In this document: positions 40,510 to 58,110 of the stretch, piece by piece
Numbering within the stretch: the first letter of the stretch is position 1
Layout: every line of letters starts with the position of its first letter
From: a virus
Direction: 5' to 3' (one strand)
IMG/VR virus record: IMGVR_UViG_3300021963_000034
Location: 32,001 to 96,000 of that record
DNA length: 64,000 nucleotides
Position numbers and translations under genes: made by a program
The notes under the pieces: model-generated
Told to the model about the DNA's origin: nothing
Databases searched by the model: none
What the model saw: only the letters and a program-made list of their open reading frames with translations

Positions 40510-40578
40510 ATTCCCAAAAAATACTTTTAGTTATTTAGTTTTTATAAATAACTAGAAATAACAAGGGGAGAGTGAACC

Positions 40579-43500
40579 TTGGCTATAAATAAGAATTTTG
40601 TAGTAAAGCACGGGTTAGAAGTAAATACTAATCTTATTCTCGCTAAAGCAGAGACTGGTAGAATTGGTATTGGAACCACAAATCCGTCTTCAAGGTTTAA
40701 CGTATATAATACATCCGAGTCTAAAGTAGTAGTTGAAAGTTTAGAGCAAGAAGCTTCGATTGTAATTGATTCTGGAATTACTTCAACCTCTTATATTGAG
40801 TTCAAGCAAGATGGAACTCTAAAGAGTAATATAACATTCGATTCTGCAAATTCTGATTCTTTAGAAATAAATTCTAGAACAAATAAAAATGTCGTAATCG
40901 CAAGTGGTGGAGGTGAGGTCGGTATTGGGACCACTAATCCATCAGCATTATTTCAAGTAGGTCCTGGACCCTCTTCAGTTGTAATTACGAATTCGAGCGG
41001 TATTGGTTCTGTTGGTATTGGTACAGTAACACCAACGTCTAACTTGCATGTAGTTGGAACTACTTTATTAATTGGCGATACAATCCAAACTTCAGGATCT
41101 GTTGGAATTTCAACTAGAAATCCAATTCAGAGATTTCAAATTGGAACCAGAAATGACTTTGTTCCTGCAGTTTCTGTTGCAGGTTCTATCGGTATTTCGA
41201 CTGATATTATCACTGGTATTGATACCTCAGGTATATTTGTTGGATATGAACTTGTAGGAATAACCACGATCGTTTCTGTTGGAACGACAGTAACTTCTAT
41301 AGGTTCTGGAACTGTAGGTATTGGAACCACAACTTTAAATACTACATCTTCTTTAAGTGGTGTATCATTTACATTTGGATTTAGAGACGACAGTAAAGTA
41401 TTCGTAGTCACTTCTGATGCTAAGACTGGTATTGGGACCACAAATCCAACATCAAAACTTCATGTTGTAGGAGATACTTTAGTAACTGGAGTATCTACAT
41501 TTGTAGGATTTTCAACCTTTAATAATGATGTATATGTCGCAGGATTATCAACTTTTGCAAGCAATGTACATCTTCTTGATAATAAAAAGTTATATCTTGG
41601 TGATGGTAATGATTTAGAAATTTATCATAGTGGAACTGATAGTTATATTAAAGATGCTGGAACTGGAAATTTAATTATTAATTCAAATAATGTTCAAATT
41701 AAAAATGCTGCTGACAATGAAACTCTTGCCTCCTTCATTGAGAATGGTCAAGTAGAACTTTATTATGATAATTCTAAGAAGTTTGAAACAATTGGTACTG
41801 GTATAACAATAACTGGAGACACTTTTACAAATCAACTAAGTGTTTCTGGGGTATCTACATTTGTTAATGGAACAGTATTCATTGGATCTGGTACTACCAC
41901 TGGCACCGAATTACAAACGCTTCAAGTAACAGGTGGTGTATATGTTTCTGAAAATATCGGTATTGGAACAACCAGGCCAACATCAAAACTTCAGGTCGTA
42001 GGTACTTCTTTAGTAACTGGTATTGCAACTTTCAAAGATAGAGTTATTTTTGATAGTAAAAATTCAATACAAATTCCTGCAGGAACAACTGCAGAAAGAG
42101 ATTCTGTAGGAACTGCAGTAACTGGTCAAATTAGATACAATACTGAATACTCAACTTTTGAAGGATTTGGACCTGGTGGATCTTGGGGATCCTTGGGTGG
42201 TGTAAGAGACGTTGACGGAAACACTTACATTGTCCCAGAAACAGCACCTGGAGCAAACGAAAATACCTTATTCTTTGTTACTGACGGTACTGAAAAAGTT
42301 CAGATAAATCCAGTTGGTAATGTTGGTATTGCTACAACAAATCCAACATCAAAACTTCATGTCGTTGGCAATACCTTAATAACTGGAGTATCTACATTCA
42401 ATGATAACGTTGTAATTGCAGGAGAACTAAGAGGACCTGCAAACTTTATTATTGATCCAGCAGCAGTTGGTGATAACACAGGTGCTGTAAGAATTAGAGG
42501 TGATTTATATGTAGATGGTACTCAATTCCAAGTTAATTCTTCCACGATTGAATTAGCTGATCTAAGAGTTGGTATTGCCACAACAGTAGGAACTAATTTA
42601 TTACTGGATGGTGGTGGTATTGGTATTGGTTCTACTAATATTCTAAAATCATTTACTTACAATTATTCAAGTGATGCTTTAAAATCAAGTGAGAATTTAG
42701 ATTTAGCATCTGGAAAAGTATACAAAATTGATGGTACTGAATTACTATCATCTAATCAAGTAACTGTTCCAAATGCAAATATTTCGGGAGTTTCTACTCT
42801 TTCGAATACTGTAGTTGGTGGTGCCACAACTCAGTTAGTTGTAAATGGTGATACTAGAATTACTGGTATCTTAACAATAGGATCATCGAGTGTCACATTA
42901 AATGGTACAACTAATGCAATTAATGTTGGAACAGGTCTTACTTTGACTAGCAATGGTATCAACGCTACAGGCATTGTAACTGCATCTACTTTCTACGGTA
43001 CTGGTGGATTTTTAACTCTAGGTGCTCCCGATGATGGTGCATTGACTAGTTCGGGAGCACTCAATACTCTTTCAAGTAGTTCAAAAATAGTTAATAGTAT
43101 TGATGATTTGAATGAGCTAGCATTTAATATTATCAGAAACACTGCTGTAACCAATGTCGATTTTTCATCAAATAGTGTTGCCGGAGGATCTCCTCTTTCT
43201 ATTACACTTTCAGTTACCAGTTCTGGAAATGCTAACCGTTATGATGTTGATTGGGGAGATGGAACAACAACATCTGACTATAGTTCGGCATCTATTCCTC
43301 ACACATATACTCAACCAGCAGGTGGGCAGTTCTCAATATCACTGGTTGCCAAGAATAATACTGGAGTAGGTGCAGGTAGTAGTTATTCTACGTCTAAGAG
43401 TAGTTATATTACAGTATATACTCCAAACCCAACAGTTTCCTTTGATCTATACAGAACATCTACTGGAGGTTCTGTACTTTCAGGAAATGATCTATATGTA

Positions 43501-45432
43501 ATTGAAGGTCAATCTTTATACTTAGATAATAACACTTCAAATACAAATGGAGCAACCGTTAATTATACAATGAACTGGGGTGATGGATCAACGAATGATT
43601 CTATTGCAAATAATACTGCTGCTGGCGGCGCAGATGTTTCTGCTTCAAGACTACAACATACTTGGTCGGATGGAACAAATAGTTCTACAAGTAGAGATAC
43701 ACTTACTTTAACCTTAAATGCACATAATACTGCAGACCCTGCTGTTATTCCTGCTAACGGAACTGCATTATTAAAAGTTTATGATGATGCTCCCACTGCA
43801 CCTGATGGATTAAGTAGTAAAACATTATCAAATGTTACCAGCACTGGAACAAGTCCAAGACTTGTTTCTGGATTTACTGATAATACTGGAGGTACTACAT
43901 TATCTGCTGGCAATGATGTCAATCGTATAACTGGAGGAACTGCCGAAGCTACAGCAACTGCTTCATTTGCTTATAATGCAAACAGTGGAACTCTTACAGC
44001 ACAGGTGAACGGGTCCTCTGATGGTTCTAGAGTATTGACTAGTGGAGATGATTCTGGAACTTATACAAGTCTAGTAATCACTGAAGAAAGTGATTATCAG
44101 TTATTGAATTCTTCTGGTTCAACTACTACCTTTGCAGCAAGTATCTATTATCCTGGACTGTATAAAGGATTTAAGGCAAAAGTTTCAAAAGCAGTTTCTG
44201 CACTAAATGTTGGTGTGAATAGTATGAGACTGCTTCATAGTGTTACTGGTAACACAAACGCAGTGCAGTTTGTTAAGGATGATGTAACTTCTACACCTGT
44301 TGTAAGTATTTCAACTGCAACACTTACAGAAAACGTTGCTGGTACTTATCGCTATGTTTCTGGTATTCCTTATTACAACAGTGGTTCTCCATCTCTTACT
44401 TTATCTGGACTGACTGTTACAAACCTTACAGGACAAACATATACTAACCAATCCGATATTGTTGAAGTTGATACTGGTACAAACCAAGAGGGAACTTCCA
44501 GTGCAGCTACAACAGATAGTGATTATACATATTCTCAAATTAACGGTCCTTCAAGTATGTTAAGTGGTGGGATACCCATTGCTAACGTTGGTGTTTCTTC
44601 TCCTTACGCTACCGGAAGTCTGACTGTTCCAATCACATCCTCAAGTGTAAGAACTGTCGATCGAGTAAGAGTACGTGCTAAGAATGTAAATGGAACTAGT
44701 AGCTATACAAGTGATATTTCTACTAATATTCAAGTTCATACTGCAGCGCAGAGTGGAATTAGTGAAATTTCAATAGCAGTTCCTTCTGGACTTGGTGATG
44801 GAACTTATACTGATAATGGAAAGAGAATTTATGATTTTGGCCCTGGAGTTACTACAACAACTCCTTCTTATAATGGAGCAACTAATTTCTATACTAACAA
44901 TCCATATTCTGAATCATCTTCTCCAGCAGGAATTACTACAACAGCAGAAGCAGTTGTTAGATTGGGTGCTATCACTCACAATCAAGTGAATTATTCTGCT
45001 GGATATCTTCCAGTCGGTCCAGATTTTTCATCTGGAAGAAGTGGAACTCAGTATTTTACTTTTGCATTTAGAAGAAGAGTTGTTGCTAACTTTGATATTA
45101 ACATTACAAGTTCAACTGGTGTTGCTGGTGTTTGGATTGCTGCTCCAGGAACAAGCATAGATACTACAAGTGGATTAAATGGTTGGTTAAGAGCAGATAC
45201 TGCTTATGGAGGTTCTGGAGTTCCTGGTAGTGGGCCGGGTGGAAATGGTTCTGATGGATGTGCTTTCACTAATGGAGATAGAATTCTTACATCAACATCT
45301 TTAAGTGGTGGTTATACTATGACATTAGGTAGCGAAAACATGAGTAATGCTACTGGTAATGTTGTTCTTATAAGAATTGCTTTGAACTCAGGGCAATCCG
45401 TAACAAGTCTTAGTATAGGAGTTGCAGCGTAA
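40579..45432 (+). CDS. Long tail fibre with GIGTTNP repeats and PKD-like domains
   Basis: TTG start with GGGGAG RBS; NKNFVVKHGLEV; GIGTTNP repeats; DWGDGT and NWGDGS motifs. Confidence 0.85.
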   Translation: MAINKNFVVKHGLEVNTNLILAKAETGRIGIGTTNPSSRFNVYNTSESKVVVESLEQEASIVIDSGITSTSYIEFKQDGTLKSNITFDSANSDSLEINSRTNKNVVIASGGGEVGIGTTNPSALFQVGPGPSSVVITNSSGIGSVGIGTVTPTSNLHVVGTTLLIGDTIQTSGSVGISTRNPIQRFQIGTRNDFVPAVSVAGSIGISTDIITGIDTSGIFVGYELVGITTIVSVGTTVTSIGSGTVGIGTTTLNTTSSLSGVSFTFGFRDDSKVFVVTSDAKTGIGTTNPTSKLHVVGDTLVTGVSTFVGFSTFNNDVYVAGLSTFASNVHLLDNKKLYLGDGNDLEIYHSGTDSYIKDAGTGNLIINSNNVQIKNAADNETLASFIENGQVELYYDNSKKFETIGTGITITGDTFTNQLSVSGVSTFVNGTVFIGSGTTTGTELQTLQVTGGVYVSENIGIGTTRPTSKLQVVGTSLVTGIATFKDRVIFDSKNSIQIPAGTTAERDSVGTAVTGQIRYNTEYSTFEGFGPGGSWGSLGGVRDVDGNTYIVPETAPGANENTLFFVTDGTEKVQINPVGNVGIATTNPTSKLHVVGNTLITGVSTFNDNVVIAGELRGPANFIIDPAAVGDNTGAVRIRGDLYVDGTQFQVNSSTIELADLRVGIATTVGTNLLLDGGGIGIGSTNILKSFTYNYSSDALKSSENLDLASGKVYKIDGTELLSSNQVTVPNANISGVSTLSNTVVGGATTQLVVNGDTRITGILTIGSSSVTLNGTTNAINVGTGLTLTSNGINATGIVTASTFYGTGGFLTLGAPDDGALTSSGALNTLSSSSKIVNSIDDLNELAFNIIRNTAVTNVDFSSNSVAGGSPLSITLSVTSSGNANRYDVDWGDGTTTSDYSSASIPHTYTQPAGGQFSISLVAKNNTGVGAGSSYSTSKSSYITVYTPNPTVSFDLYRTSTGGSVLSGNDLYVIEGQSLYLDNNTSNTNGATVNYTMNWGDGSTNDSIANNTAAGGADVSASRLQHTWSDGTNSSTSRDTLTLTLNAHNTADPAVIPANGTALLKVYDDAPTAPDGLSSKTLSNVTSTGTSPRLVSGFTDNTGGTTLSAGNDVNRITGGTAEATATASFAYNANSGTLTAQVNGSSDGSRVLTSGDDSGTYTSLVITEESDYQLLNSSGSTTTFAASIYYPGLYKGFKAKVSKAVSALNVGVNSMRLLHSVTGNTNAVQFVKDDVTSTPVVSISTATLTENVAGTYRYVSGIPYYNSGSPSLTLSGLTVTNLTGQTYTNQSDIVEVDTGTNQEGTSSAATTDSDYTYSQINGPSSMLSGGIPIANVGVSSPYATGSLTVPITSSSVRTVDRVRVRAKNVNGTSSYTSDISTNIQVHTAAQSGISEISIAVPSGLGDGTYTDNGKRIYDFGPGVTTTTPSYNGATNFYTNNPYSESSSPAGITTTAEAVVRLGAITHNQVNYSAGYLPVGPDFSSGRSGTQYFTFAFRRRVVANFDINITSSTGVAGVWIAAPGTSIDTTSGLNGWLRADTAYGGSGVPGSGPGGNGSDGCAFTNGDRILTSTSLSGGYTMTLGSENMSNATGNVVLIRIALNSGQSVTSLSIGVAA
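42974..45410 (+). repeat. ~2.4 kb diverged direct repeat, second copy about 61559-64000
   Basis: Collinear shared blocks such as TATGATGTTGATTGGGGAGATGGAAC, GATGATTCTGGAACTTATACAAGTCT, AATATTCAAGTTCA. Confidence 0.9.
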
Positions 45433-45433
45433 A

Positions 45434-48106
45434 ATGGCTATTTCAAACGATCAGAAGATAGACTATCTCTGGAAAAAAATTGGTTATGGTAGAGCGAAGA
45501 CTGATACTGCAGCGATTAAGGATGCAGTAAACGAATCAATCTCAAGTGCTTTATTGTTGAGAGGTGATAACGTCTGGGCTCAATCAAATTTAATACCAAC
45601 GACTATTCCCGGTAGCAGTACATCAGTAGTTACTTTATATCCAACATCACTACCCGTCGAATGTACTGCAGATACTACTTCTTCCACAAATAGAACTTGG
45701 AAAACAAACATTACCGATTGGATTCCGCCAGAAATTGGTTCTACTTATCTTGTGAAGGTATACGTTCATACATCAGGCAATGCTGCAACTGCTGCTGCAT
45801 CTGGAACTCAATTAGTCGCTGCGGGTTCTGGTAATAATGATGAGTGGTTCTTCGACTATCAATCAGGAACTTTAAACTTTATTGGAACAAACCTTCCAAG
45901 TGGAGTTAATTTTACTGGCAAGAGTGTTTATATTAGTGGTGCAGTTTATAGTGGAATTAAAGGAGTTCCTGCTGTAGGTTCTGCAAATACCTTTACAAAT
46001 TTAGACTTAACCGGAAACTTAAATGTATCTGGAGTTTCCACATTTGCAGGTGGTATTCGAGGTATTGGCATTCAGTCCGGAAGTGTCAATATAGCAACAG
46101 GGATTATTACTGCGTTAAATTTTGTTGGTTCTGGTAATTCCATTTCATATAATGCAGGAACTAAAGTTGTTGATATTAGTATTGGTGGAGGAAATTGGGA
46201 GTATGAAAATCCAACAAATACCTATCAAAGTGATATTTACCGCTTGAATGGAAATGTTGGCATAGGAACCATAGACCCAACATCAAAACTTGATGTTCGC
46301 GGAAATGTCAATGTTTCTGGAATTGTTACCGCTACTGTTTTTGTTGGTGATGGTTCTGGACTGACTGGCATTACTGCATCTGGATCAGGTATTGTTATTA
46401 AAGATTCTGGATCTCTTGTAGGCACTGCAGGCACAATAGATTTTGGCGATAATTTAACAGTTTCTACAATATCTGCTGGAGTAGTTACTGTCACTTCTTC
46501 TGGCGGTGGAGGATCTTCCCAATGGGAGACAACTGCAGCAGGTATTCATACATTATCTAACGTCGGCATAGGAACCACAAATCCAACAGCAAAACTTCAG
46601 GTTAATGGAAATATAAATTTAAATTATGGAAGCTCAACTACAGCGTCATCTATAACTTGGTCCACCAGTGGCACTGCAAATGTTCTTTTAAAAACTTTTG
46701 GAACATCTAACTCTAATACTTCTATGGTATGGAATAGTGGAAATCTTATTTCCAATCCAACATCTACAAATAGTGTATATATTGGTGCATGGGCATCACC
46801 TAATGCATCAGGAACAAGTAATGTTAGCATTGGATCAGGTTGTGGATACTTACTATCAACTGGGGCTAGCAATGTATTTGTTGGTCAGGGTGCAGCATAT
46901 TTTACAACTGGTTCTAATAATACATTTCTCGGTAGTCAATCTGGAGGTGTAGTTACTAGTGGAAGTAATAATACAATATTAGGTGGGTTTAATGGTAATT
47001 CAGGTGGTTTAGATATAAGAACATCTAATAATAATGTTGTAATTGCTGATGGTAGTGGTAATATAAGATTATATGCAAACTCAACTGGAAATATTGGTAT
47101 AGGAACCACAAATCCAACATCAACCTTTACTGTTGTAGGAAACGCTTTAATATCTGGAGTAACAACTTCCGGTGGATATAACGCAACCACAGGAAATGAT
47201 TATAAAATCAATGAAACTTCAGTTCTTAATGCAACAACTCTAGGTTCTGGAGTTGTTAACTCTTCTCTAACTTCTGTTGGAACTCTAACTTCTCTAAATG
47301 TATCTGGAACAACAACAGCAAATTCTTTTGTAAAGACTGGTGGAACTTCAAATCAATTCTTAAAGGCAGATGGTTCAATTGATACTAATACTTATCTAAC
47401 TTCAGCACTACAAAATGTTGTTGAAGATACTACACCACAACTTGGTGGAAATTTAGACCTTAATAGTAAAAATATTACCGGTACTGGTGATGTTAATATT
47501 ACTGGTGTCGTTACTGCTACTTCATTCTCTGGTTCTGGTGCAAATTTAACTTCTCTAGATGCTTCTAATATTTCTTCGGGAATAGTATCAACTGCTAGAC
47601 TGGCATCAGGAACCGCAGATTCAACGACATATTTAAGAGGAGACCAAACTTGGGCAAGTATTAGTGGCGGTGGTGCAACTCTAAGTAATGACACCACAAC
47701 AGACGCATCTTATTATCCAACATTTTCCAGTGCAACTTCCGGAACATATTCAACTGCTTATGTGTCTGATACGAAATGTACTTTCAATCCATCAACAGGC
47801 ACATTATCAGCGACTCAATTTACATCACTATCGGATAAAACTCAAAAGACCAATATTAGACTCATAGATAATTCAATTGAACTTGTGAAACAACTTGAAG
47901 GAGTTCGTTATGATTGGATAAATAATCAAAAACCTTCAATTGGTGTGATTGCACAAGATATTGAAAAAGTACTTCCAGAAGTAGTTGAAACAAATAGTAA
48001 TGGTTTGAAATCAGTCTCTTATGGAAATATAGTTGGTGTATTAATTGAAGCAATTAAAGAACAACAAATTCGCATTGAAGAGTTGGAGAAAAAGTTAAAT
48101 GCCTAA
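45434..48106 (+). CDS. Tail fibre with C-terminal intramolecular chaperone (peptidase S74)
   Basis: GIGTTNP repeats; [40 protein letters not shown]. Confidence 0.9.
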
Positions 48107-49307
48107 TCAATTTAATTCGCCAGAAGGAGATTTAGAGAATTATTTTGTGAGTGAATATTGGTTAATTGACCAGTGGGTTGGTGATACCTTATGGAATTGG
48201 GGTCGTAATACTCAAGGACAAATAGGAGACAATACAGCAACCCAAAGAAACACTCCAGTCACAACACTTGCTGGTGGCGCAAATTGGAAACAAGTTAGTA
48301 CTGGAAGTAATGGTAGTCATACAGTAGCAATAAAAACGGATGGAACTCTATGGAATTGGGGTAATAATTTTAGTGGAGGACTGGGAGTCAATTCACCATC
48401 CAATAGATCCACTCCAGTCACAACATTCGCAGGAGGAACCAACTGGAAACAAGTTGCTAGTGGAGGAGGCCATACAGTAGCAATCAAAACTGATGGAACC
48501 CTATGGACTTGGGGTTCTAATTCTTCTGGACAATTAGGAACCAATGGACCAACAGGTTTGGGAGTAGCAAAAAGCACTCCAGTCACCACATTCGCAGGAG
48601 GAACTAACTGGAAACAAGTAAGTGCAGGAAATCTACATACATTAGCAATCAAAACTGATGGAACCTTATGGACTTGGGGTGATAATTATTATGGACAACT
48701 AGGAGACAATACAACAACCAATAGATGCACTCCAGTCACCACATTCGCAGGAGGAACCAATTGGAAACAAGTTGCTGGTGGAAGAGATCATACAGCAGCA
48801 ATCAAAACCGATGGAACCTTATGGACTTGTGGTCGTAATGCTTATGGAGGTTTAGGAGACAATACAACAACCAATAGATCCACTCCAGTCACCACATTCG
48901 CAGGAGGAACCAATTGGAAACAAGTTGCTGGTGGAGGTTCTTATACAGCAGCAATCAAAACTGATGGAACCTTATGGACTTGGGGTCTTACTTCTGCTGG
49001 TCAACTAGGAATCAATAGATCAGGTTTTGGAATAGCAATAACCACTCCAGTCACAACATTCGCTGGAGGAACCAACTGGAAACAAGTTGCTGGTGGAAAC
49101 GGTCATATAGCAGCAATCAAGACTGATGGAACCTTATGGACTTGGGGAAGTAATTTTGCTGGACAACTAGGAAACAATACAACAACCACTAGTTCCACTC
49201 CAGTTACAACATTCGCAGGAGGAACCAACTGGAAACAAGTTTCTGGTGGATATGGACATACAGTAGCAGTCACATCAGGAACAGATCCTACCTTCTTTAT
49301 TTCATAA
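48099..49307 (+). CDS. RCC1-repeat 7-bladed beta-propeller #1
   Basis: Seven [31 protein letters not shown] repeats. Confidence 0.92.
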
Positions 49308-49324
49308 ATATTTAAAAAAGACAT

Positions 49325-49969
49325 ATGTACGCACTCGTTAATGGTCAAGAATTAAGATTAGGACCAATTGCATTCAACTATAGAATGATTAATGATGAAC
49401 TAGAAGAACTTGAAGTTGATTTTAGAGTAAAATCTTCTGATTATCAATCAGTTCCTATTTCGGTTACTGATGATATTAAAATTCTTCCTGCGAGATATGA
49501 TAATCCAGAGTATGACCCAAGATTTGAAGGTCTTTCAAATGTATCTCACGAAATCACTGAAACTGAAGTAATTTTTAGACACGATAAGGGTTTTAAATCA
49601 CTTCAACAAATTAAGGATGAATATAAGGCAGCAGTAAAACCAGAAAGACAAAGAAAAGAAAACACTACAATTTCTCTAACTGTAAAAGATACTGAAATTA
49701 CAGTATCAACAAGTAGAGAAAGTAGAATTGAATTGATGTCTAAACTTCTTGGTAATGAAGGTCCTTATAATTTCAAGTTTGCGAATGGTGTATGGGTAGA
49801 AGTGACTAAAGTAGATCTTCAAACTATTATTGCTGCAATTGATGTAAAAGTTCAAGAAGCATATGATTGGGAACTTGCAAAACTTCAAGAAATTGATGCT
49901 TGTGAAACAAAAGAAGCAGTTTATGAAGTTGAAATTACTCCACCTCCAGCAGAAAATCCTGTAGTCTGA
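49325..49969 (+). CDS. DUF4376-like tail fibre assembly protein
   Basis: [31 protein letters not shown]. Confidence 0.7.
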
Positions 49970-49970
49970 T

Positions 49971-51185
49971 ATGCCAAATCCAACCACTAATTTTAAAGAT
50001 GATTATGGTACTGATTTAGGTAATAAATTAATTACCAAAGAATATTTGATGACTGTTTATCCGCAGATTGGTAATCAATTAATCACTCCGGAATTGTGGG
50101 TTTGGGGGCTTAATTCTTATGGACAACTAGGAGACAATACAACATCCAATAGACGCACTCCAGTCACAACACTGGCAGGAGGGTCCAACTGGAAACAAGT
50201 TTCTGGTGGTGGTAATTATATAGCAGCAATCAAAACCGATGGAACTCTATGGACTTGGGGTCGTAATAATCAAGGACAACTAGGAGACAATACAACAACC
50301 AATAGATCCACTCCAGTCACCACATTCGCTGGAGGATCCAATTGGAAACAAGTTGGTGGTGGAAGTTTTCATACAACAGCAATCAAAACCGATGGAACCC
50401 TATGGACTTGGGGTTTTAATTATTATGGACAACTAGGAGACAATACAACAACCAATAGATCCACTCCAGTCACCACATTCGCGGGAGGATCCAATTGGAA
50501 ACAAGTTTCTGGTTCTTTTCAAGGTAATATTACAGCAGCAATCAAAACTGATGGAACTCTATGGACTTGGGGTCGTAATAATCAAGGACAACTAGGAGAC
50601 AATACAACAACCAATAGATCCACTCCAGTCACCACATTCGCTGGAGGATCCAATTGGAAACAAGTTTCTTGTGGAGGTTATTTCATATCAGCAATCAAAA
50701 CAGATGGAACCCTATGGACTTGGGGTTTTAATTCTTCTGGACAACTAGGAGACAATACAACAACCACTAGATCCACTCCAGTCACAACATTCGCTGGAGG
50801 ATCCAATTGGAAACAAGTTTCTGGTGCATCTAGTCATACAGCAGCAATCAAAACTGATGGAACTCTATGGATTTGGGGTGCTGGTACTACTGGACGACTA
50901 GGAAACAATACAACAACCACTAGTTCCACTCCAGTTACAACATTCGCAGGAGGAACCAACTGGAAACAAGTTTTTGCTGGAGTAAATAATACAGTAGCAA
51001 TCAAAACAGATGGAACCTTATGGACTTGGGGTTCTAATTCTTATGGACAAGTAGGAACCAATAATACAACCACTAGTTCCATTCCAGTCACAACATTCGC
51101 AGGAGGAACCAACTGGAAACAAGTTGCTGGTGGTGGTAATCATATAACAGCAATCAAAACCTCTGACGATTTACAAGGAATCTAA
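49971..51185 (+). CDS. RCC1-repeat beta-propeller #2
   Basis: Seven blades; distinct N-terminus. Confidence 0.92.
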
Positions 51186-51209
51186 ATACTTTCAAATACA
51201 ATATTCTAT

Positions 51210-52559
51210 ATGAATCCACTTGAATTGGTTGCAAAGACCTTATATTCATTCAAAGAACAGCAACTAACTTTTGAATTACTTGATGCCTTTGGAAAACAAG
51301 CACAAGTATTTTCACAGTATGATGAAATTGCAAAGATATTTTTTGAACTTAAAAACTTCTCCAAAGCAATTGAATATGGAGAAAAATCTCTTAAACTAGC
51401 ACAAACAAAAGAGGAAAAATATACCACCTCTATGAATTTGATTAATGCTTATAATCAATCAAATCATCCAGAGAAGTCTATTACTCAAATTGAAAAGTGC
51501 AAAAAGATTAATCCGCAAGATACTGAACTTCTTCTGGAAGAAACCTTTGCATATTCTGCACTCAATCAAAAAGAGAAATCAGAAAAACTTCTCTTCAATC
51601 TTCTTCAAAGAAAACTACCAGAAGAGATTGAACGAAAAGCATATCATAATCTATCCGGACATTATTTCCGTAAGGATGATATTCATACAGGACTTCAACA
51701 CTTTCTCAAAGCAGGAGAAGTAGAAGCATATAAAAATCAAAAGCATCCTGATTTTGAGAAGTGGGATGGAACAATTACACCAGGAAGAACTGTAATTATT
51801 GATAATCAATGTGGTGCTGGTGATGAAGTCATTCATATTCGGTTTATGAAACACCTCAAAGACTTGGGAATGAAACCAATTTGGAGTTCTACTCGTAGAG
51901 AACTTGTAGAACTCTTCAAACATAATGGTTATGATGCCGTTTGTATTTGGGACAAACCAGAGTTTCCAAAAGATGCCTGTTGGGTTTATGGTCTTGCACT
52001 TCCTTATTATCTCAATCTCGAATTGAAAGATATTGGAAGAGAACCATATCTCCAAACACTCCCAGAGTATGATAAGAAGTGGGAATGGATGAAAGAAGAT
52101 ACTGGACATAAAGTTGGTATATTCTGGGCATCCAGTTCTGGTTTTGAACAGAACTCTTTCCGTTCGGTGGAACTCAAAGATTATATGAGTGTTCTTGGAA
52201 ACAAAGGATATTCTCTGTATTCACTTCAAACTCATACTGATAACAAAGATGCAAATGATTATCCAGAAATCAAACAATCACTATCAGTTCCTAATAGAGA
52301 GTTTGCTGATACATTCTCAATCATTAAGAACCTGGATTTGGTGGTGACTTCTTGTAGTTTTGTCGCTCACGTTGCAGCATCATTAGGTAAAGAAGTTTGT
52401 GTCTTTGTTCCAATTATGGAATATTATGTTTGGACTTCTTCTACTGGAAAGTGTATGTGGTATGGAGATAACGTTCATCTCTTCCGCCAAAAGAAACCAA
52501 GAACTTGGGATGCACCCATCAAAGAGTTTTGGGAGTTTATGAATGATAGAAGAGTATAA
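51210..52559 (+). CDS. TPR-containing GT-B (GT9-like) glycosyltransferase
   Basis: N-terminal TPR-like helices; WDG..QCGAGDEVIHIRF; VGIFW; YSLQ; FADTFSIIKNLDLVVTSCSFVAHVAASLGK. Confidence 0.85.
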   Translation: MNPLELVAKTLYSFKEQQLTFELLDAFGKQAQVFSQYDEIAKIFFELKNFSKAIEYGEKSLKLAQTKEEKYTTSMNLINAYNQSNHPEKSITQIEKCKKINPQDTELLLEETFAYSALNQKEKSEKLLFNLLQRKLPEEIERKAYHNLSGHYFRKDDIHTGLQHFLKAGEVEAYKNQKHPDFEKWDGTITPGRTVIIDNQCGAGDEVIHIRFMKHLKDLGMKPIWSSTRRELVELFKHNGYDAVCIWDKPEFPKDACWVYGLALPYYLNLELKDIGREPYLQTLPEYDKKWEWMKEDTGHKVGIFWASSSGFEQNSFRSVELKDYMSVLGNKGYSLYSLQTHTDNKDANDYPEIKQSLSVPNREFADTFSIIKNLDLVVTSCSFVAHVAASLGKEVCVFVPIMEYYVWTSSTGKCMWYGDNVHLFRQKKPRTWDAPIKEFWEFMNDRRV

Positions 52560-53001
52560 TTTATCCTTTCTCAACCTCAATTCCATCAAGAACAAACTAC
52601 TACAAATACAAACTGCTTCTCACGGACTTGTAACAAAAGGTGTTTCCACCTATAATCACGGAATGCCTACTTTGATGTATCCAGAACTGACTGGATTAAA
52701 AAATATTTTCAAACAATATGTTAGAATATATTGTAGAAAGTATGAGATTCCACCTTTAAAGTTTATCAATAGTTGGTTTAATATTTCACAACCAGGAAAT
52801 AAACTCAAAGCACATAAGCACGAAGAAAGTGTTGTGAGTGGAGCATTTTATATTTCTGGTGCAACTCCACTTATCTTTCCAGATACATCAATCAAACCAT
52901 ATCCTGGTTTGTTAGTCATCTTTTCAAGTGATTTAGTTCATTACACAGAAGAAGAAACAGAAGAAAGAATTATTATTAGTTTTAATACAGACTACCTATG
53001 A
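52543..53001 (+). CDS. Putative 2OG-Fe(II) oxygenase
   Basis: SWFNI, HKH..VSGAFY, GLLVIFSS.LVH, RIIISFN. Confidence 0.85.
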   Translation: MIEEYNLSFLNLNSIKNKLLQIQTASHGLVTKGVSTYNHGMPTLMYPELTGLKNIFKQYVRIYCRKYEIPPLKFINSWFNISQPGNKLKAHKHEESVVSGAFYISGATPLIFPDTSIKPYPGLLVIFSSDLVHYTEEETEERIIISFNTDYL

Positions 53002-53681
53002 GATTTCATACTTTTTATACCAAAAATCTTTCAGAACAACTGATAGAAGACCATAAGAAAGTCTGTAATCATATTGGCATTGATGTGACTTATCATATTC
53101 AAGATGCAATAGATGATTATGATACTCTTTATACCGCTCACGGAAAGTTTATGACTTCTGTAATGGAGCAGGAAGAGGTTGCTTGTTTTCTTGATATTGA
53201 TTGTCTTCCGCATAATAAAGAACTTCTGGAAAGAGCATACAACTGGGCAATAGAAAATAAATCTTTTGTCGGAAATGCTCAAAACATTTCTCATACGCAA
53301 ATGAGAAATCATATCTATGCTGCTGCTTCTTGTTTAATTGTAACGAAAGATGCCTGGAATACTTTGGGTAATCCAGACTTTTCCTGGTTTATGCAGAATG
53401 AAGTTCAAATAGATACTGCACAACTTCTCACATTAAGAGCAGACCAAATTGGAATGCCCTATCAATTAATGTATCCTGTTGGTTATGATGGTCCAGAAGA
53501 ATATAAACTTTCTGGATATGGAATATATGGAACAGGAACTTTATACCCAGCAACTTGGCATTATTTTAGAATCAGTAAGTTCAAGGATCAAATACCAGAC
53601 CTTTGGACAACTCGTGTAAATAATATATTAGAAGGTCAAAAGATTATTCCAAATTATTCATCGTGTTTTTATGAACTATAA
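52998..53681 (+). CDS. Putative GT-A glycosyltransferase
   Basis: ACFLDIDCLP DxD motif. Confidence 0.6.
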   Translation: MRFHTFYTKNLSEQLIEDHKKVCNHIGIDVTYHIQDAIDDYDTLYTAHGKFMTSVMEQEEVACFLDIDCLPHNKELLERAYNWAIENKSFVGNAQNISHTQMRNHIYAAASCLIVTKDAWNTLGNPDFSWFMQNEVQIDTAQLLTLRADQIGMPYQLMYPVGYDGPEEYKLSGYGIYGTGTLYPATWHYFRISKFKDQIPDLWTTRVNNILEGQKIIPNYSSCFYEL

Positions 53682-54438
53682 GTTTTTGTTTTTAGTTGGG
53701 TCTGCAATTAATCATTTTAAAGAGGATGATTTGAGTGCTTTTAAAGCAGAAGAAAGATTTCAACAGACATTAGATACTATTCAGTCAATTAAGAATAAAG
53801 TTCCAGATGCTTATATTTTAATCTACGAAGGCTCTGAAACTCCTATCAAAGATGAGTATAAAGATATTCTGAGACAGAAATCTGATTTGTTTATTCAGTG
53901 TGGTAGTGACCCTTATATGAAATCTTTGTATGAGAACATTCACAAAGACCCACCAAAGTTCACATTTGTAAAATCTATGCTTGAGTGTAGATGTTTACAG
54001 ATTGTTCTGAATCATATGAGACAGCACAATATCTTTAATGATGTCACAAGAGTGTTTAAGTTGACTGGTCGGTATACTCTTAATGATAACTTTGACATCA
54101 ATGACTACAAGAGTAAATTCTTAATCAATAAGTATGTGATGAAATATTATGACTACAAAGAAAGATTTGAGGAGATGGATGATATCTATGTTTCTCTCTT
54201 TGGATGTAAAGGAACAACCGTAACTGGATTGTGGTCCTTTGACCGATTCTTATTCAATGATATTTTTAATGTTCTTCAGAAGAGTTTTGAATATATGGAA
54301 AGAGCAATTCAGTTAACTTGTGGTATGGACATTGAACATTCTTTCTATCACTTTATCAAGAGAGATGATATCATAAATGTTCCTATTCTTGGTGTTGATG
54401 TAGTTAAAGGTATGGATGGAGACAGATTTTCATTATGA
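53671..54438 (+). CDS. Glycosyltransferase-like hypothetical protein
   Basis: ERFQQTLDTIQSI, RVFKLTGRY, DIEHSFY. Confidence 0.55.
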   Translation: MNYKFLFLVGSAINHFKEDDLSAFKAEERFQQTLDTIQSIKNKVPDAYILIYEGSETPIKDEYKDILRQKSDLFIQCGSDPYMKSLYENIHKDPPKFTFVKSMLECRCLQIVLNHMRQHNIFNDVTRVFKLTGRYTLNDNFDINDYKSKFLINKYVMKYYDYKERFEEMDDIYVSLFGCKGTTVTGLWSFDRFLFNDIFNVLQKSFEYMERAIQLTCGMDIEHSFYHFIKRDDIINVPILGVDVVKGMDGDRFSL

Positions 54439-55091
54439 AACTCGCAATCTTTTATCATACTTTTCAAAATGAAATATCTGCTTTCATTTATCAACAACAA
54501 ATCAATCGTCTTTATGTGACTGGATTAATGAATGCTGTTGATTATATGCATATTGGTGTAAATGGAAATAACGAGTTATTCAATGTTCCATCTAAAGCAA
54601 AAGTTGTATACAATCAAAATCAAAAAGAAGAAACAGAAACATTGATTGCATTAAAAGATTTTGCATACGAAAATCCAGATTATAAAATTTTATATTTTCA
54701 CACTAAAGGTGCAAGTAAGGGAACTTTGATTGCAAATGCTTGGAGATTGATGATGGAGTATTTTGTAATTGATAAGTGGAAAGAGTGTGTGGAAATGTTG
54801 GATGAATATGATTGTGTTGGTTCAAATCTAAATCCCGTGGGAGAAACTTTATGGAGTGATGGCACAACAACTATACCAGTAGAAGGAACTTATAATTTTA
54901 CTGGAAATTTCTGGTGGGCAACTGCGAAACACATTCAATCATTAGATCATAAATTTTTGACAAGTGATTATCGTATAGATAGAGAACTATGGATTGGAAG
55001 TAATCCAAACTCAAATCCCGGAACCATTTATCAACCGGGAGTATATGAGTCCTATGAACATTTCTACATGGAGGAAGATTATGTTTCGTAA
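54435..55091 (+). CDS. Glycosyltransferase-like protein
   Basis: ILYFHTKG, WRLMMEYF, GNFWWA, ELWIG. Confidence 0.6.
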   Translation: MKLAIFYHTFQNEISAFIYQQQINRLYVTGLMNAVDYMHIGVNGNNELFNVPSKAKVVYNQNQKEETETLIALKDFAYENPDYKILYFHTKGASKGTLIANAWRLMMEYFVIDKWKECVEMLDEYDCVGSNLNPVGETLWSDGTTTIPVEGTYNFTGNFWWATAKHIQSLDHKFLTSDYRIDRELWIGSNPNSNPGTIYQPGVYESYEHFYMEEDYVS

Positions 55092-55452
55092 TTGTGGAGA
55101 ATGTACTGCTTGTTGCACTTGGTTACAAGGTTCTGCTTATGGATATGAGTTTGGTGGTGGAAAGTCTTGTAAGTTTTTATGTGAGACTGGGTGTAGTGTT
55201 CATAAGGCAAGACCAAAATTATGTGAGGGATATTTTTGTGCTTGGGCTCAAGAACTCATAACAGAAGAAATGAGACCTGATAAATGTGGTGTTCTTGTTT
55301 CTGTTGAAAATAATGAGAACGGACAATATCTCAAATTGGTTTCTACTCAAGAAGAAATAAATAAAGATATATTAGAATATTTTAGAAATTGGAGTAGTAT
55401 AATGAATACTCCTGTGATTTATTCAAACAATAATTCCTGGGAAGTCCTCTAA
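55081..55452 (+). CDS. CxxCxxCC (YkgJ-like) metal-binding protein
   Basis: CGECTACC..CKFL..GCSVH..RP..C..YFCAW..RPDKCG. Confidence 0.75.
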   Translation: MFRNCGECTACCTWLQGSAYGYEFGGGKSCKFLCETGCSVHKARPKLCEGYFCAWAQELITEEMRPDKCGVLVSVENNENGQYLKLVSTQEEINKDILEYFRNWSSIMNTPVIYSNNNSWEVL

Positions 55453-56627
55453 TGCCTACTTTTTACAATTACACAGAGAATGGTGCAGTATATTCTTTTG
55501 ATGATGTCTTTGTTCCTGCTGATGCTTTTAGGCAGGGGAACTTATGGACTTGGGGTAATAATTCTTCTGGACGACTAGGAGACAATACAGCACCCAATAG
55601 ATCCACTCCAGTCACAACACTTGCTGGCGGAGCAAACTGGAAACAAGTTTTTGCTGGAGTAAATAATACAGTAGCAATCAAAACAGATGGAACCCTATGG
55701 ACTTGGGGTTATAATATTGGTGGACAACTAGGAGACAATACAACAACTGATAGATCCACTCCAGTCACCACATTCGCAGGAGGAACTAACTGGAAACAAG
55801 TAAGTGCAGGAAATCTACATACATTAGCAATCAAAACTGATGGAACCTTATGGACTTGGGGGAGTAATGCTTATGGACAACTAGGAGACAATACATCAAC
55901 CAATAGATCCACTCCAGTCACTACATTCGCAGGAGGAACCAACTGGAAACAAGTTGCTTGTGGTCAAATTCATACAGCAGCAATTAAAACCGATGGAACC
56001 TTATGGACTTGGGGTCGTAATCTTAGTGGGCAAGTAGGAGACAATACAACAACCAGTAGATTCACTCCAGTCACCACATTCGCAGGAGGAACTAACTGGA
56101 AACAAGTAAGTGCAGGAAGTCTACATACATTAGCAATCAAAACTGATGGAACCTTATGGACTTGGGGTCGTAATAATAGTGGACAACTAGGAGACAATGC
56201 AGCAACTGATAGATCCACTCCAGTAACAACATTCGCTGGAGGAAATAATTGGAAACAAGTTGCTTTTAGTGCTAATGGATATCATACTGCAGCAATTAAA
56301 ACCGATGGAACCTTATGGACTTGGGGTCGTAATCTTAGTGGACAACTAGGAGACAATGCAGCAACTGATAGATCCACTCCAGTAACAACATTCGCAGGAG
56401 GAACTAACTGGAAACAAGTTGCTAGTGCTGGCAATTATACAGCAGCAGTCAAAACTGATGGAACCTTATGGACTTGGGGTCGTAATAGTAGTGGACAACT
56501 AGGAGACAATACAACAACCAATAGATCCACTCCAGTAACAACATTCGCAGGAGGAAATAATTGGAAACAAGTTGCTAGTGGATATTCTCATACAGCAGCA
56601 ACAACCTACATAGATGATTATCAGTAA
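55452..56627 (+). CDS. RCC1-repeat beta-propeller #3
   Basis: Seven blades; distinct N-terminus. Confidence 0.92.
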   Translation: MPTFYNYTENGAVYSFDDVFVPADAFRQGNLWTWGNNSSGRLGDNTAPNRSTPVTTLAGGANWKQVFAGVNNTVAIKTDGTLWTWGYNIGGQLGDNTTTDRSTPVTTFAGGTNWKQVSAGNLHTLAIKTDGTLWTWGSNAYGQLGDNTSTNRSTPVTTFAGGTNWKQVACGQIHTAAIKTDGTLWTWGRNLSGQVGDNTTTSRFTPVTTFAGGTNWKQVSAGSLHTLAIKTDGTLWTWGRNNSGQLGDNAATDRSTPVTTFAGGNNWKQVAFSANGYHTAAIKTDGTLWTWGRNLSGQLGDNAATDRSTPVTTFAGGTNWKQVASAGNYTAAVKTDGTLWTWGRNSSGQLGDNTTTNRSTPVTTFAGGNNWKQVASGYSHTAATTYIDDYQ

Positions 56628-56644
56628 AACATTATTTCTTAATT

Positions 56645-57427
56645 ATGAAAACATTATTTTTCCTTTCTGGTCTTCCAAGATCAGGTTCTACTTTACTTGG
56701 ATCAATTCTTTCACAACATCCAAAACTCCAAGCAACTCCAACATCACCACTTGCCGATTTGCTCTGTTGGATTGATGAGGGTTTTTCAAAGATAGACTTA
56801 CAATATACTTACGATAAACAACAGATACAATACAATACATATAATTCAATACTTGAAAACTTCTACAATCACATAGAGAAACCTTGCATTCTTGATAAGC
56901 ATCGTGGTTGGTGTAAGAATGTATCTTCTATTGAAAAGTTTCTCAAACAGAAACCAAAAATCATTGCAACAAACAGAAGAATAAGTGAAGTTCTTGCTTC
57001 TTATATTCTACTCATTCAAAGAAATAATGAAGCAGATAATTTTGTAGATGCACATTTGAGAAGAGAGGGAAAGCTCATTACCACAGATAATCGTATTGAG
57101 TGTTTATGGAAGAATTATGTTTGCGATCCTTATGAGAGTTTGGTTTATGGTTTGACTAATTATAGGGACAATATTCATCTTGTAGATTATAATAATCTTA
57201 CACAAGACCCAGAACAAGAACTTAAAAAGATTTATGAGTTTCTAGAAATAGAAAATCATTCACACGATTTTTCTAATATCTTTAATACTTGTGCCGAAGA
57301 AAAGGACCACGAATGGGGTATTGATAATCTTCATCAAATTCGCACCAAACTTCAAAGAACTTCACCACCACCAGAAGAAGTGATTGGTGAAGAAAATGTA
57401 AAACTTTATGATAAATTTAATCTATGA
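56645..57427 (+). CDS. Sulfotransferase
   Basis: FFLSGLPRSGSTLL..ILSQHP PAPS-binding loop. Confidence 0.92.
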   Translation: MKTLFFLSGLPRSGSTLLGSILSQHPKLQATPTSPLADLLCWIDEGFSKIDLQYTYDKQQIQYNTYNSILENFYNHIEKPCILDKHRGWCKNVSSIEKFLKQKPKIIATNRRISEVLASYILLIQRNNEADNFVDAHLRREGKLITTDNRIECLWKNYVCDPYESLVYGLTNYRDNIHLVDYNNLTQDPEQELKKIYEFLEIENHSHDFSNIFNTCAEEKDHEWGIDNLHQIRTKLQRTSPPPEEVIGEENVKLYDKFNL

Positions 57428-58110
57428 TTGAAGTATTTTTAAGACACTGCTACACATCCAAAGTAAATCTTTCGGGAGCAAATCGTCCAGAGTGGTGGGA
57501 TAAAGAAAAGGTATTTCAAAATTTCAAGAATACCCTCAATCCAGAAACCACTAACTATACAATCATCTTTGATGAGTGTTATGGAAAGCAGAAAGATACA
57601 TTTCTCAAAAATGAGAATGCAGTAACTATTAATTGTGGTAAAGAAAGTGAAAGTTTCTGTAAGACACTGGACCACATTCTTTCACAAGACTTTGATGATG
57701 ATACAATCATTTATTTCCTTGAAGATGATTATGTACATCGTCCAAACTGGGATAGAGCCCTCATAGATGGATTTACTCTACCTGTTCAGTATGTAACCTT
57801 ATATGATCACGGAGATAAGTATCAGGAGATGTATAAGGACTTTATGACGAAAGTTCTTGCAACAAAATATTCTCACTGGATGCCAACTCCATCAACTACA
57901 AATACCTTTGCAATGAAGTTCAAGACACTCAAAGAAGATAAAGAAGTTCATAAACACTTCTCAACTGGTTTTGAACCTTCCGCAGATCACGGTAAATTTT
58001 TAGAACTACATAAGAGAGGAAGAAATTTAATTTCAAGTATTCCTGGTTATTCTACACACGCACATAAAGACTTTTTATCACCTTGTATTGATTGGAGCAC
58101 ATATCTATGA
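57424..58110 (+). CDS. GT-A glycosyltransferase-like protein
   Basis: IYFLEDDYVH, YVTLYDH.DKY, STTNTF, IPGYSTH. Confidence 0.75.
   Translation: MIEVFLRHCYTSKVNLSGANRPEWWDKEKVFQNFKNTLNPETTNYTIIFDECYGKQKDTFLKNENAVTINCGKESESFCKTLDHILSQDFDDDTIIYFLEDDYVHRPNWDRALIDGFTLPVQYVTLYDHGDKYQEMYKDFMTKVLATKYSHWMPTPSTTNTFAMKFKTLKEDKEVHKHFSTGFEPSADHGKFLELHKRGRNLISSIPGYSTHAHKDFLSPCIDWSTYL

Follow-up and report, generated by a model that had tools for sequence, protein, structure and literature searches.

How the blades of three propeller genes of a cyanophage came to vary at the first and second bases of a few codons while nearly always ending these codons in T or C is the question raised by the window analysed here, a stretch of 64,000 nucleotides from the IMG/VR record IMGVR_UViG_3300021963_000034. 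The window covers bases 32001-96000 of a contig of 153,555 bases, the completeness of which is estimated at 72%. Its nearest isolate is the Synechococcus phage S-SRM01, a freshwater T4-like cyanomyovirus (Kyanoviridae), with which it shares the gene order and about 82% nucleotide identity across the region. The genes, here called A (48099-49307, 402 amino acids), B (49971-51185, 404 amino acids) and C (55452-56627, 391 amino acids), are open reading frames (ORFs) on the plus strand, each with seven blades of the RCC1 type (48180-49304, 50085-51182 and 55533-56624, respectively). A preliminary description had offered two explanations, a trans-acting, blade-sized template resembling that of a diversity-generating retroelement (DGR), or gene conversion together with strong diversifying selection. 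The second was supported by the grouping of blades by genome, the presence of donor blades for some recent changes, a ratio of amino-acid to silent change (omega) of about 3.5 and the alignment of the variable codons to one face of UVR8. We consider it probable that the copying of repeats between blades, combined with diversifying selection, explains the pattern, and that the variable face would bind a host ligand in proteins located on or near the tail fibres.

A script applied to a codon alignment of the 21 blades gave the same counts as those reported. Of the 84 codons following the W-G motif, 81 end in T and three, in blades A1, B2 and B4, are CAA. Arginine at the first variable codon is always CGT (8/8), whereas the scaffold arginine is AGA in 16 blades. 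Additionally, the codon within GGA-NNC-AAT (GAC, ACC, AAC, GTC or ATC) and the codon before ACT-CCA (TCC, AAC, AGC, TGC, ACC, CGC or TTC) end in C in all 21 blades. Third-position T and C make up 45% and 11%, respectively, of the codons of this genome, from which 49.7 T-endings would be expected instead of 81 (P = 1e-20). The excess persisted when each distinct codon was counted only once (24 of 25 T-ending versus 14 expected, P = 5e-7), and it was also found in the NNC columns (12 of 12 versus 1.9 expected, P = 1e-10). Genome-wide codon usage cannot account for these T- and C-endings. The T share of the window (0.95) is the highest among 44 related loci (median 0.81; minimum 0.29). The claim that the scaffold is nearly invariant at silent sites did not hold, as several scaffold codons show a third-base entropy of 0.7-1.7 bits, and the proportion of silent differences between blades is 0.24, compared with 0.17 at the variable codons. 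The scaffold of the 21 blades is also rich in codons that are rare in the genome (TTC, GAC, ACC, TCC, GTC, ATC and CTA), which points to a repeat unit that may have come from a different composition context and then ameliorated slowly; in the relatives, scaffold codons have decayed towards T and A.

We read the constancy of the third base as the neutral state of a repeat family that is young and homogenised, and not as a footprint left by adenine mutagenesis. Between the window and S-SRM01, silent identity is 0.78-0.82 in the RCC1 genes and 0.65-0.84 in the flanking genes, whereas identity at codon positions 1-2 is 0.79-0.84 in the RCC1 genes, compared with 0.90-0.96 in the flanks. Because silent identity in the RCC1 genes matches that of their flanks while identity at positions 1-2 drops, the first two positions are the fast ones. 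Across 17 genomes, the within-genome third-base distance of the scaffold predicted that of the loop codons (r = 0.77, p = 3e-4) but not the loop distance at positions 1-2 (r = -0.08), which was always 0.46-0.68. In less homogenised genomes, with a scaffold third-base distance of about 0.5, the loop third bases were scrambled to an equal degree. Moreover, among 364 distinct blades, the third-base entropy of the loop codons was 1.0-1.3 bits, which equals the scaffold value, and the two NNC columns contained T169/C174 and T108/C178/A70. Since loop third bases track the silent sites of the scaffold, their near-uniform T or C was passed down from the ancestral repeat unit and is being lost at the silent rate. 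As a null, we used a codon-substitution model with the third-position base frequencies of the genome, an omega of 3.5 and a branch length matched to the scaffold synonymous divergence (t = 0.145). This model predicted 14.5% non-T endings, with 65% of the codons changed at positions 1-2, and the 8 non-T endings among 57 codons of S-SRM01 fit it (P = 0.55). Given a shared ancestral repeat unit and this null, the pattern is not exceptional.

The rate at which the loop codons change was estimated by pairwise Nei-Gojobori counts of nonsynonymous (dN) and synonymous (dS) divergence for nine loop codons per blade and for the scaffold. The dN of the loop codons was about 1.0 in both the window and S-SRM01, compared with a scaffold dS of 0.29-0.32, giving an omega of about 3.5 at the loop codons and of 0.18-0.25 in the scaffold. 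Between near-identical alleles, the dN excess was roughly sixfold, a rough estimate from difference counts. These values bear on the view that the loops are merely unconstrained, that is, that selection is relaxed on the surface loops of a rigid scaffold and does not favour diversity. The tolerance of 16-19 residues at loop positions across the family fits that view, as does the low model confidence in the loops. However, loop dN exceeds scaffold dS in both phages and among the near-identical alleles, the residues used are not uniform but favour Y, N, S, F, R, G and D, and unselected differences would be erased by conversion, yet the loop differences persist. We therefore regard relaxed selection as very unlikely.

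The proposal of a DGR, or of another template-directed retro-mutagenesis acting in trans, by which an AAY-rich template would be copied into the loop codons of every blade, starts from a real resemblance. The NNT and NNC codon sets of the window look like an AAY-derived repertoire, and Lys, Glu, Met and Trp are not encoded at its variable sites. In addition, the contig is 72% complete, so a reverse transcriptase (RT) gene could lie in the missing part. However, searches with RVT_1 (PF00078) at E <= 1 gave no match in the contig itself, in the complete genome of S-SRM01 (240,842 bp), in three 100%-complete relatives (258, 247 and 224 kb) or in two partial relatives; control genomes did give RVT_1 matches. 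S-SRM01 and the 258- and 247-kb relatives share the third-base signature, with a T share of 0.82-0.90, and the third complete relative has a T share of 0.75 over only 12 counted codons, too few blades to judge. BlastN and tBLASTn searches with the blades found no copy outside the three genes in the contig, and the same was true of S-SRM01. An exact scan with a degenerate scaffold 27-mer gave 0 matches in one genome each of 185,579 prokaryote species, although a diverged template would escape such a scan.

The blades themselves also speak against a retroelement. Of the 150 sites of a blade, about 29 are sense-strand adenines that hardly vary and 18 are thymines that never do, and because of these a blade-sized template copied by an adenine-mutagenic RT is excluded on either strand. 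Nineteen of the 21 blades keep the canonical AAT (Asn) of the WG-x-N motif, at the second position after W-G, and the majority base at the most variable sites is C at three, G at four, T at two and A at four of them. At the variable codons, T endings made up 74-82% in a set of 612 distinct blades drawn from 67 related loci, and codons beyond the reach of AAY mutagenesis were common there (AGA, CAA, TGG, TTG, CAG, AAA and GAA). Recent changes, seen by comparing gene C with its relative at the IMG/VR locus L007, include third-base and non-adenine substitutions. Logan contigs of 4 of the 20 runs that contain the stretch, compared at 90% likeness, showed a transition-rich spectrum with about 26% A>N changes; these contigs are fragmented and multiply placed over the repeats, the listed differences lie mostly in non-RCC1 genes, and the spectrum weighs neither for nor against site-specific mutagenesis. 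Neither an RT gene nor a template repeat was found in the genomes searched, and the variation is not confined to template adenines. The retroelement reading is not supported, and we consider it extremely improbable.

Evidence for the alternative, copying between blades, came from a tree built on the scaffold alone, with 113 blades of 8 genomes, in which label changes were compared with those of shuffled labels. Genome labels required 34 changes, compared with 78.8 +/- 2.8 after shuffling, whereas blade positions required 74 changes compared with 79.2 +/- 2.5, which is almost random, and the 16 blades of one genome formed a single clade. Blades therefore group by genome and not by position, indicating concerted evolution. 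Net silent divergence between blade pools rises to 0.1-0.3 in distant genomes, and the within-genome distance stays at 0.18-0.3; the pools of the three closest genomes (the window, S-SRM01 and L007) are still intermixed, with a net silent divergence of approximately 0. Five adjacent blades of gene B share a Ser codon and a silent AAT that are not found in the S-SRM01 orthologue. Identical loops occur across genes with different partner loops (B6/C1, A3/C2/C4 and B2/B4), and more such combinations were found in locus L002. Gene C and its L007 counterpart are 96.8% identical at the nucleotide level, and their differences are mostly multi-base and concentrated in loop codons. For two of these recent multi-base changes, exact donors including linked silent changes are present in other blades of the same genome. 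Copy number varies as well, since gene A has seven blades in the window and six in S-SRM01 gp335 (345 amino acids; L001 8570-9604), and L007 carries four RCC1 genes instead of three.

Two side observations touch on this exchange. The identity of the window to L007 is about 81% over 47723-54999 and then 94-97% over 55497-57436 (window about 55100-57436 versus L007 15163-18685), which indicates a recombination mosaic whose breakpoint lies close to where gene C begins. In addition, blades belonging to different RCC1 genes are joined in metagenome contigs of two or three independent studies (49254 to 55930, 55654 to 48302 and others); the joints could stem from strains that are natural recombinants or relatives, or from assembling across repeats.

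Taken further, such exchange might constitute an active generator that needs no RT, in which phage recombination shuffles loop cassettes among the 21 blades during each infection, and a lysate holds a standing repertoire of faces. If true, this would be a phage counterpart of the assembly of lamprey variable lymphocyte receptors or of fungal HNWD shuffling. The exact donors of some recent changes, the mosaic loop combinations, the metagenome joints and the differences in copy number among relatives are what such a generator would leave behind. However, orthologues in different samples are 96.8-99.9% identical with the blade order intact, which implies slow turnover on the scale of silent divergence, and the joints are equally explicable by related strains or by assembly across repeats. 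We consider a generator acting in each infection very unlikely. The term 'antibody-like', used for the repertoire in the preliminary description, is overstated, as nothing indicates somatic or per-infection diversification.

Where the variable codons lie on the protein was approached through the fold. Pfam RCC1 (PF00415) matched each protein in seven stretches (215-250 bits, cut-off 21.7), with E-values of 1.7e-64 for gene A, 1.5e-72 for gene B and 1.1e-75 for gene C, and WD40_RLD (PF25390) matched with 278-336 bits (cut-off 150; E-value for gene A 1.3e-82). The proteins consist of seven tandem repeats of about 51 residues, modelled as a seven-bladed propeller and thus belonging to the RCC1-like domain class. 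Specifically, the AlphaFold2 model of the gene B protein (pTM 0.76) contains 7 x 4 strands, and Foldseek superposed it on HERC2 RLD2 (TM-score 0.80) and also on UVR8, RCC1 and BLIP-II. In this model, the two hypervariable loops of each blade connect the first to the second strand and the third to the fourth strand. They lie on the same side of the propeller because they are alternate loops of a four-strand meander, and the conserved FAGG-x-N and TDGT loops sit on the opposite side. A phmmer alignment to UVR8 (4e-47) placed the first codon after W-G on W94, W198, W250 and W302 and the two codons that precede H-T on W-R in the UVR8 GWRHT motif, residues that lie at the UVR8 dimer interface (PMC7455749). 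The model and the alignment thus support the view that the variable positions occupy one propeller face, predicted to be homologous to the UVR8 interface face. A further peculiarity concerns blade A5, in which the second Trp of W-x-W-G is replaced by Cys (TGT, 48828-48830); the remaining 20 blades of the window and all 20 of S-SRM01 have TGG there.

The neighbourhood of the three genes suggests what this face might contact. Directly upstream of gene A lies a tail-fibre-like gene on the plus strand (45422-48106, 894 amino acids) with a Peptidase_S74 intramolecular chaperone domain at residues 804-855. It matches many PHROG tail-fibre families, and in S-SRM01 the annotation of its orthologue reads 'long tail fiber distal subunit'. 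The ATG of gene A lies within the last codons of this fibre gene, with an overlap of 8 nucleotides. Between genes A and B, a DUF4376 gene (49325-49969, plus strand; PF14301, 4e-10) matches the PHROG family 10508 'tail fiber protein' (6.5e-7). In the products of genes A, B and C, the seven RCC1 repeats are preceded by a short unique N-terminus and followed by a short unique C-terminal tail, and these gene-specific termini are conserved between phages while the loops vary. The coupling to the fibre gene, the conserved termini and the single fast face fit propeller heads that would sit on the fibre or baseplate apparatus and face the host. On this gene context, which also includes a co-oriented structural block, we infer that the variable face may bind a ligand on the host surface and that the proteins may be located on or near the tail fibres.

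The same evolution could also serve another task, in which the propellers act inside the cell as binders of host proteins, inhibitor-like as BLIP-II, or as DNA-condensing proteins. The fold does match BLIP-II, a bacterial protein inhibitor, and a DNA-ordering role was proposed for the eleven RCC1-like proteins of phage phAPEC6 by the authors who described them (PMC7247149). However, the propeller genes stand in a co-oriented structural block, where gene A overlaps a tail-fibre gene and the fibre-type DUF4376 gene lies among them, and conserved gene-specific terminal tails combined with varying loops are as expected of attachment pieces. We consider an intracellular function unlikely and prefer a receptor-binding role.

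The structural block is opened by a gene for a 1617-amino-acid protein with a PKD domain (40579-45432, plus strand; PKD_4; PHROG virion structural protein), the S-SRM01 orthologue of which is annotated as a baseplate wedge subunit; the genes that follow are co-oriented and overlap. At its start, the T4-late-promoter-like TATAAATA occurs at 40543-40550 and 40584-40591. The count of TATAAATA across the whole window is at chance level, with no enrichment behind the idea of a T4-type late promoter. According to the S-SRM01 annotation, a TPR protein, a 2OG-Fe(II) oxygenase and hypothetical proteins are encoded between genes B and C, and a sulfotransferase gene follows gene C. By the same annotation, modification-type genes at 51210-55452 and 56645-58110, including a Cys-rich ORF at 55093-55452, are interleaved with the propellers, and a glycosyltransferase and an epimerase of the same cluster lie beyond the sulfotransferase. 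This cluster might modify a glycan or the propellers themselves.

Taken together, we propose that the 21 blades of the three seven-bladed RCC1-type beta-propellers would descend from one repeat unit and that their likeness would be kept by copying within and between the three genes, through gene conversion or unequal recombination. Approximately nine codons per blade, in two loops on one face, would change their amino acids about 3.5 times faster than silent changes accumulate. The first and second bases of the loops would thereby be near saturation, and third bases would retain the ancestral T or C, as silent sites of the scaffold do, because amino-acid change in the loops outpaces silent change.

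Several points, besides the incomplete contig, weigh against this explanation. The omega values derive from pairwise counts and not from a tree-based site test, and they ignore recombination. Under the codon model, the 3 non-T endings among 63 codons of the window are low (P about 0.013, assuming independent blades), which is tempered because the window is the extreme of 44 loci. The face was assigned from strand topology and homology to UVR8, not from coordinates, and pLDDT is low in the loops. Moreover, several recent multi-base changes have no donor among the sampled blades (GGT to ACT; AGT/TTC to CAA/CAA within 9 nucleotides), and an unsampled donor or rapid stepwise selection must be assumed for them.

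Relatives of the blades extend beyond cyanophages. At least 600 stretches, drawn from many bacterial phyla and with 40-53% identity, contain the blade motif KTDGTLWxW, with no cyanobacterium among the best 80. Only two bacterial loci had five or more blades of 51 codons, too few to generalise. One of them, in a metagenome-assembled genome of the Streptosporangiaceae (L080), has five blades with the same pattern (third-position distance of the scaffold 0.14; loop distance at positions 1-2 0.56).

What is new here is the explicit rejection of a DGR signature together with a quantitative account of the third-base pattern. Runs of NNT and NNC codons at variable sites are expected in any young, homogenised repeat family under diversifying selection, and they should be taken for a DGR footprint only when accompanied by an RT, a template and adenine specificity; this removes a tempting false positive. 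A widespread family of cyanophage propellers, not described so far, also emerges from the analysis. Its members combine a rigid scaffold with a fast-evolving ring of loops and adjoin tail fibres; the paper on S-SRM01 makes no mention of the RCC1 genes of this phage. These propellers are candidate determinants of host range in freshwater and estuarine Synechococcus phages. In addition, they offer a natural binder scaffold, the allowed loop repertoire of which is readable from hundreds of blades.

Among known systems, multi-copy RCC1-repeat genes of large myoviruses were described in the jumbo coliphage phAPEC6 with its eleven RCC1-like proteins (PMC7247149), and the PHROG families 7220, 4219 and 16766, labelled 'regulator of chromosome condensation', matched at E-values of 1e-49 to 1e-50. 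These sets are annotated only, with a speculative role in DNA condensation, and neither a hypervariable face nor concerted evolution is described for them. UVR8, the HERC2 RLD and BLIP-II share the seven-bladed fold, and the variable positions of the cyanophage propellers are homologous to the interface residues of UVR8; unlike the cyanophage propellers, these proteins have divergent blades, no hypervariable ring and unrelated functions. In the gp38 adhesins of the T4 superfamily, conserved DNA encoding glycine-rich motifs flanks short hypervariable segments and favours recombinational exchange. Their fold is unrelated, and they have neither a tandem array of blades nor a multi-gene repertoire.

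The DGR of the Bordetella phage BPP-1, which diversifies Mtd, resembles the present case in that putative binding proteins associated with tail fibres vary at the first two positions of surface codons. However, the cyanophage genes have no RT, template repeat or adenine specificity and keep many adenines invariant; their fold is RCC1 and not a C-type lectin, and where the DGR has a single variable region, here 21 repeat units vary.

Of the systems described, the HNWD family of Podospora anserina comes closest. It comprises the WD40 repeats of NLR-like proteins (het-d, het-e and het-r), which evolve in concert both inside a gene and from one gene to another; each repeat has four positively selected codons on its interaction surface, and repeat number varies (Paoletti, Saupe and Clave 2007, PMC1805685). 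HNWD and the cyanophage propellers share high internal nucleotide identity, repeats that group by genome and not by orthologue, and a variable number of repeats. In both, a few diversifying codons per repeat, arranged in pairs that flank a conserved residue, lie on the interaction face, which in the cyanophage is putative; dN exceeds dS at these codons, and exchange between genes was found in the cyanophage as well. The cyanophage system differs in having the RCC1 instead of the WD40 fold, in belonging to a phage and not a fungus, and in lacking hypermutation of the RIP (repeat-induced point mutation) type as a mutational supply. The presumed target differs accordingly, being the host-cell surface for the cyanophage propellers and an allelic partner protein for HNWD.

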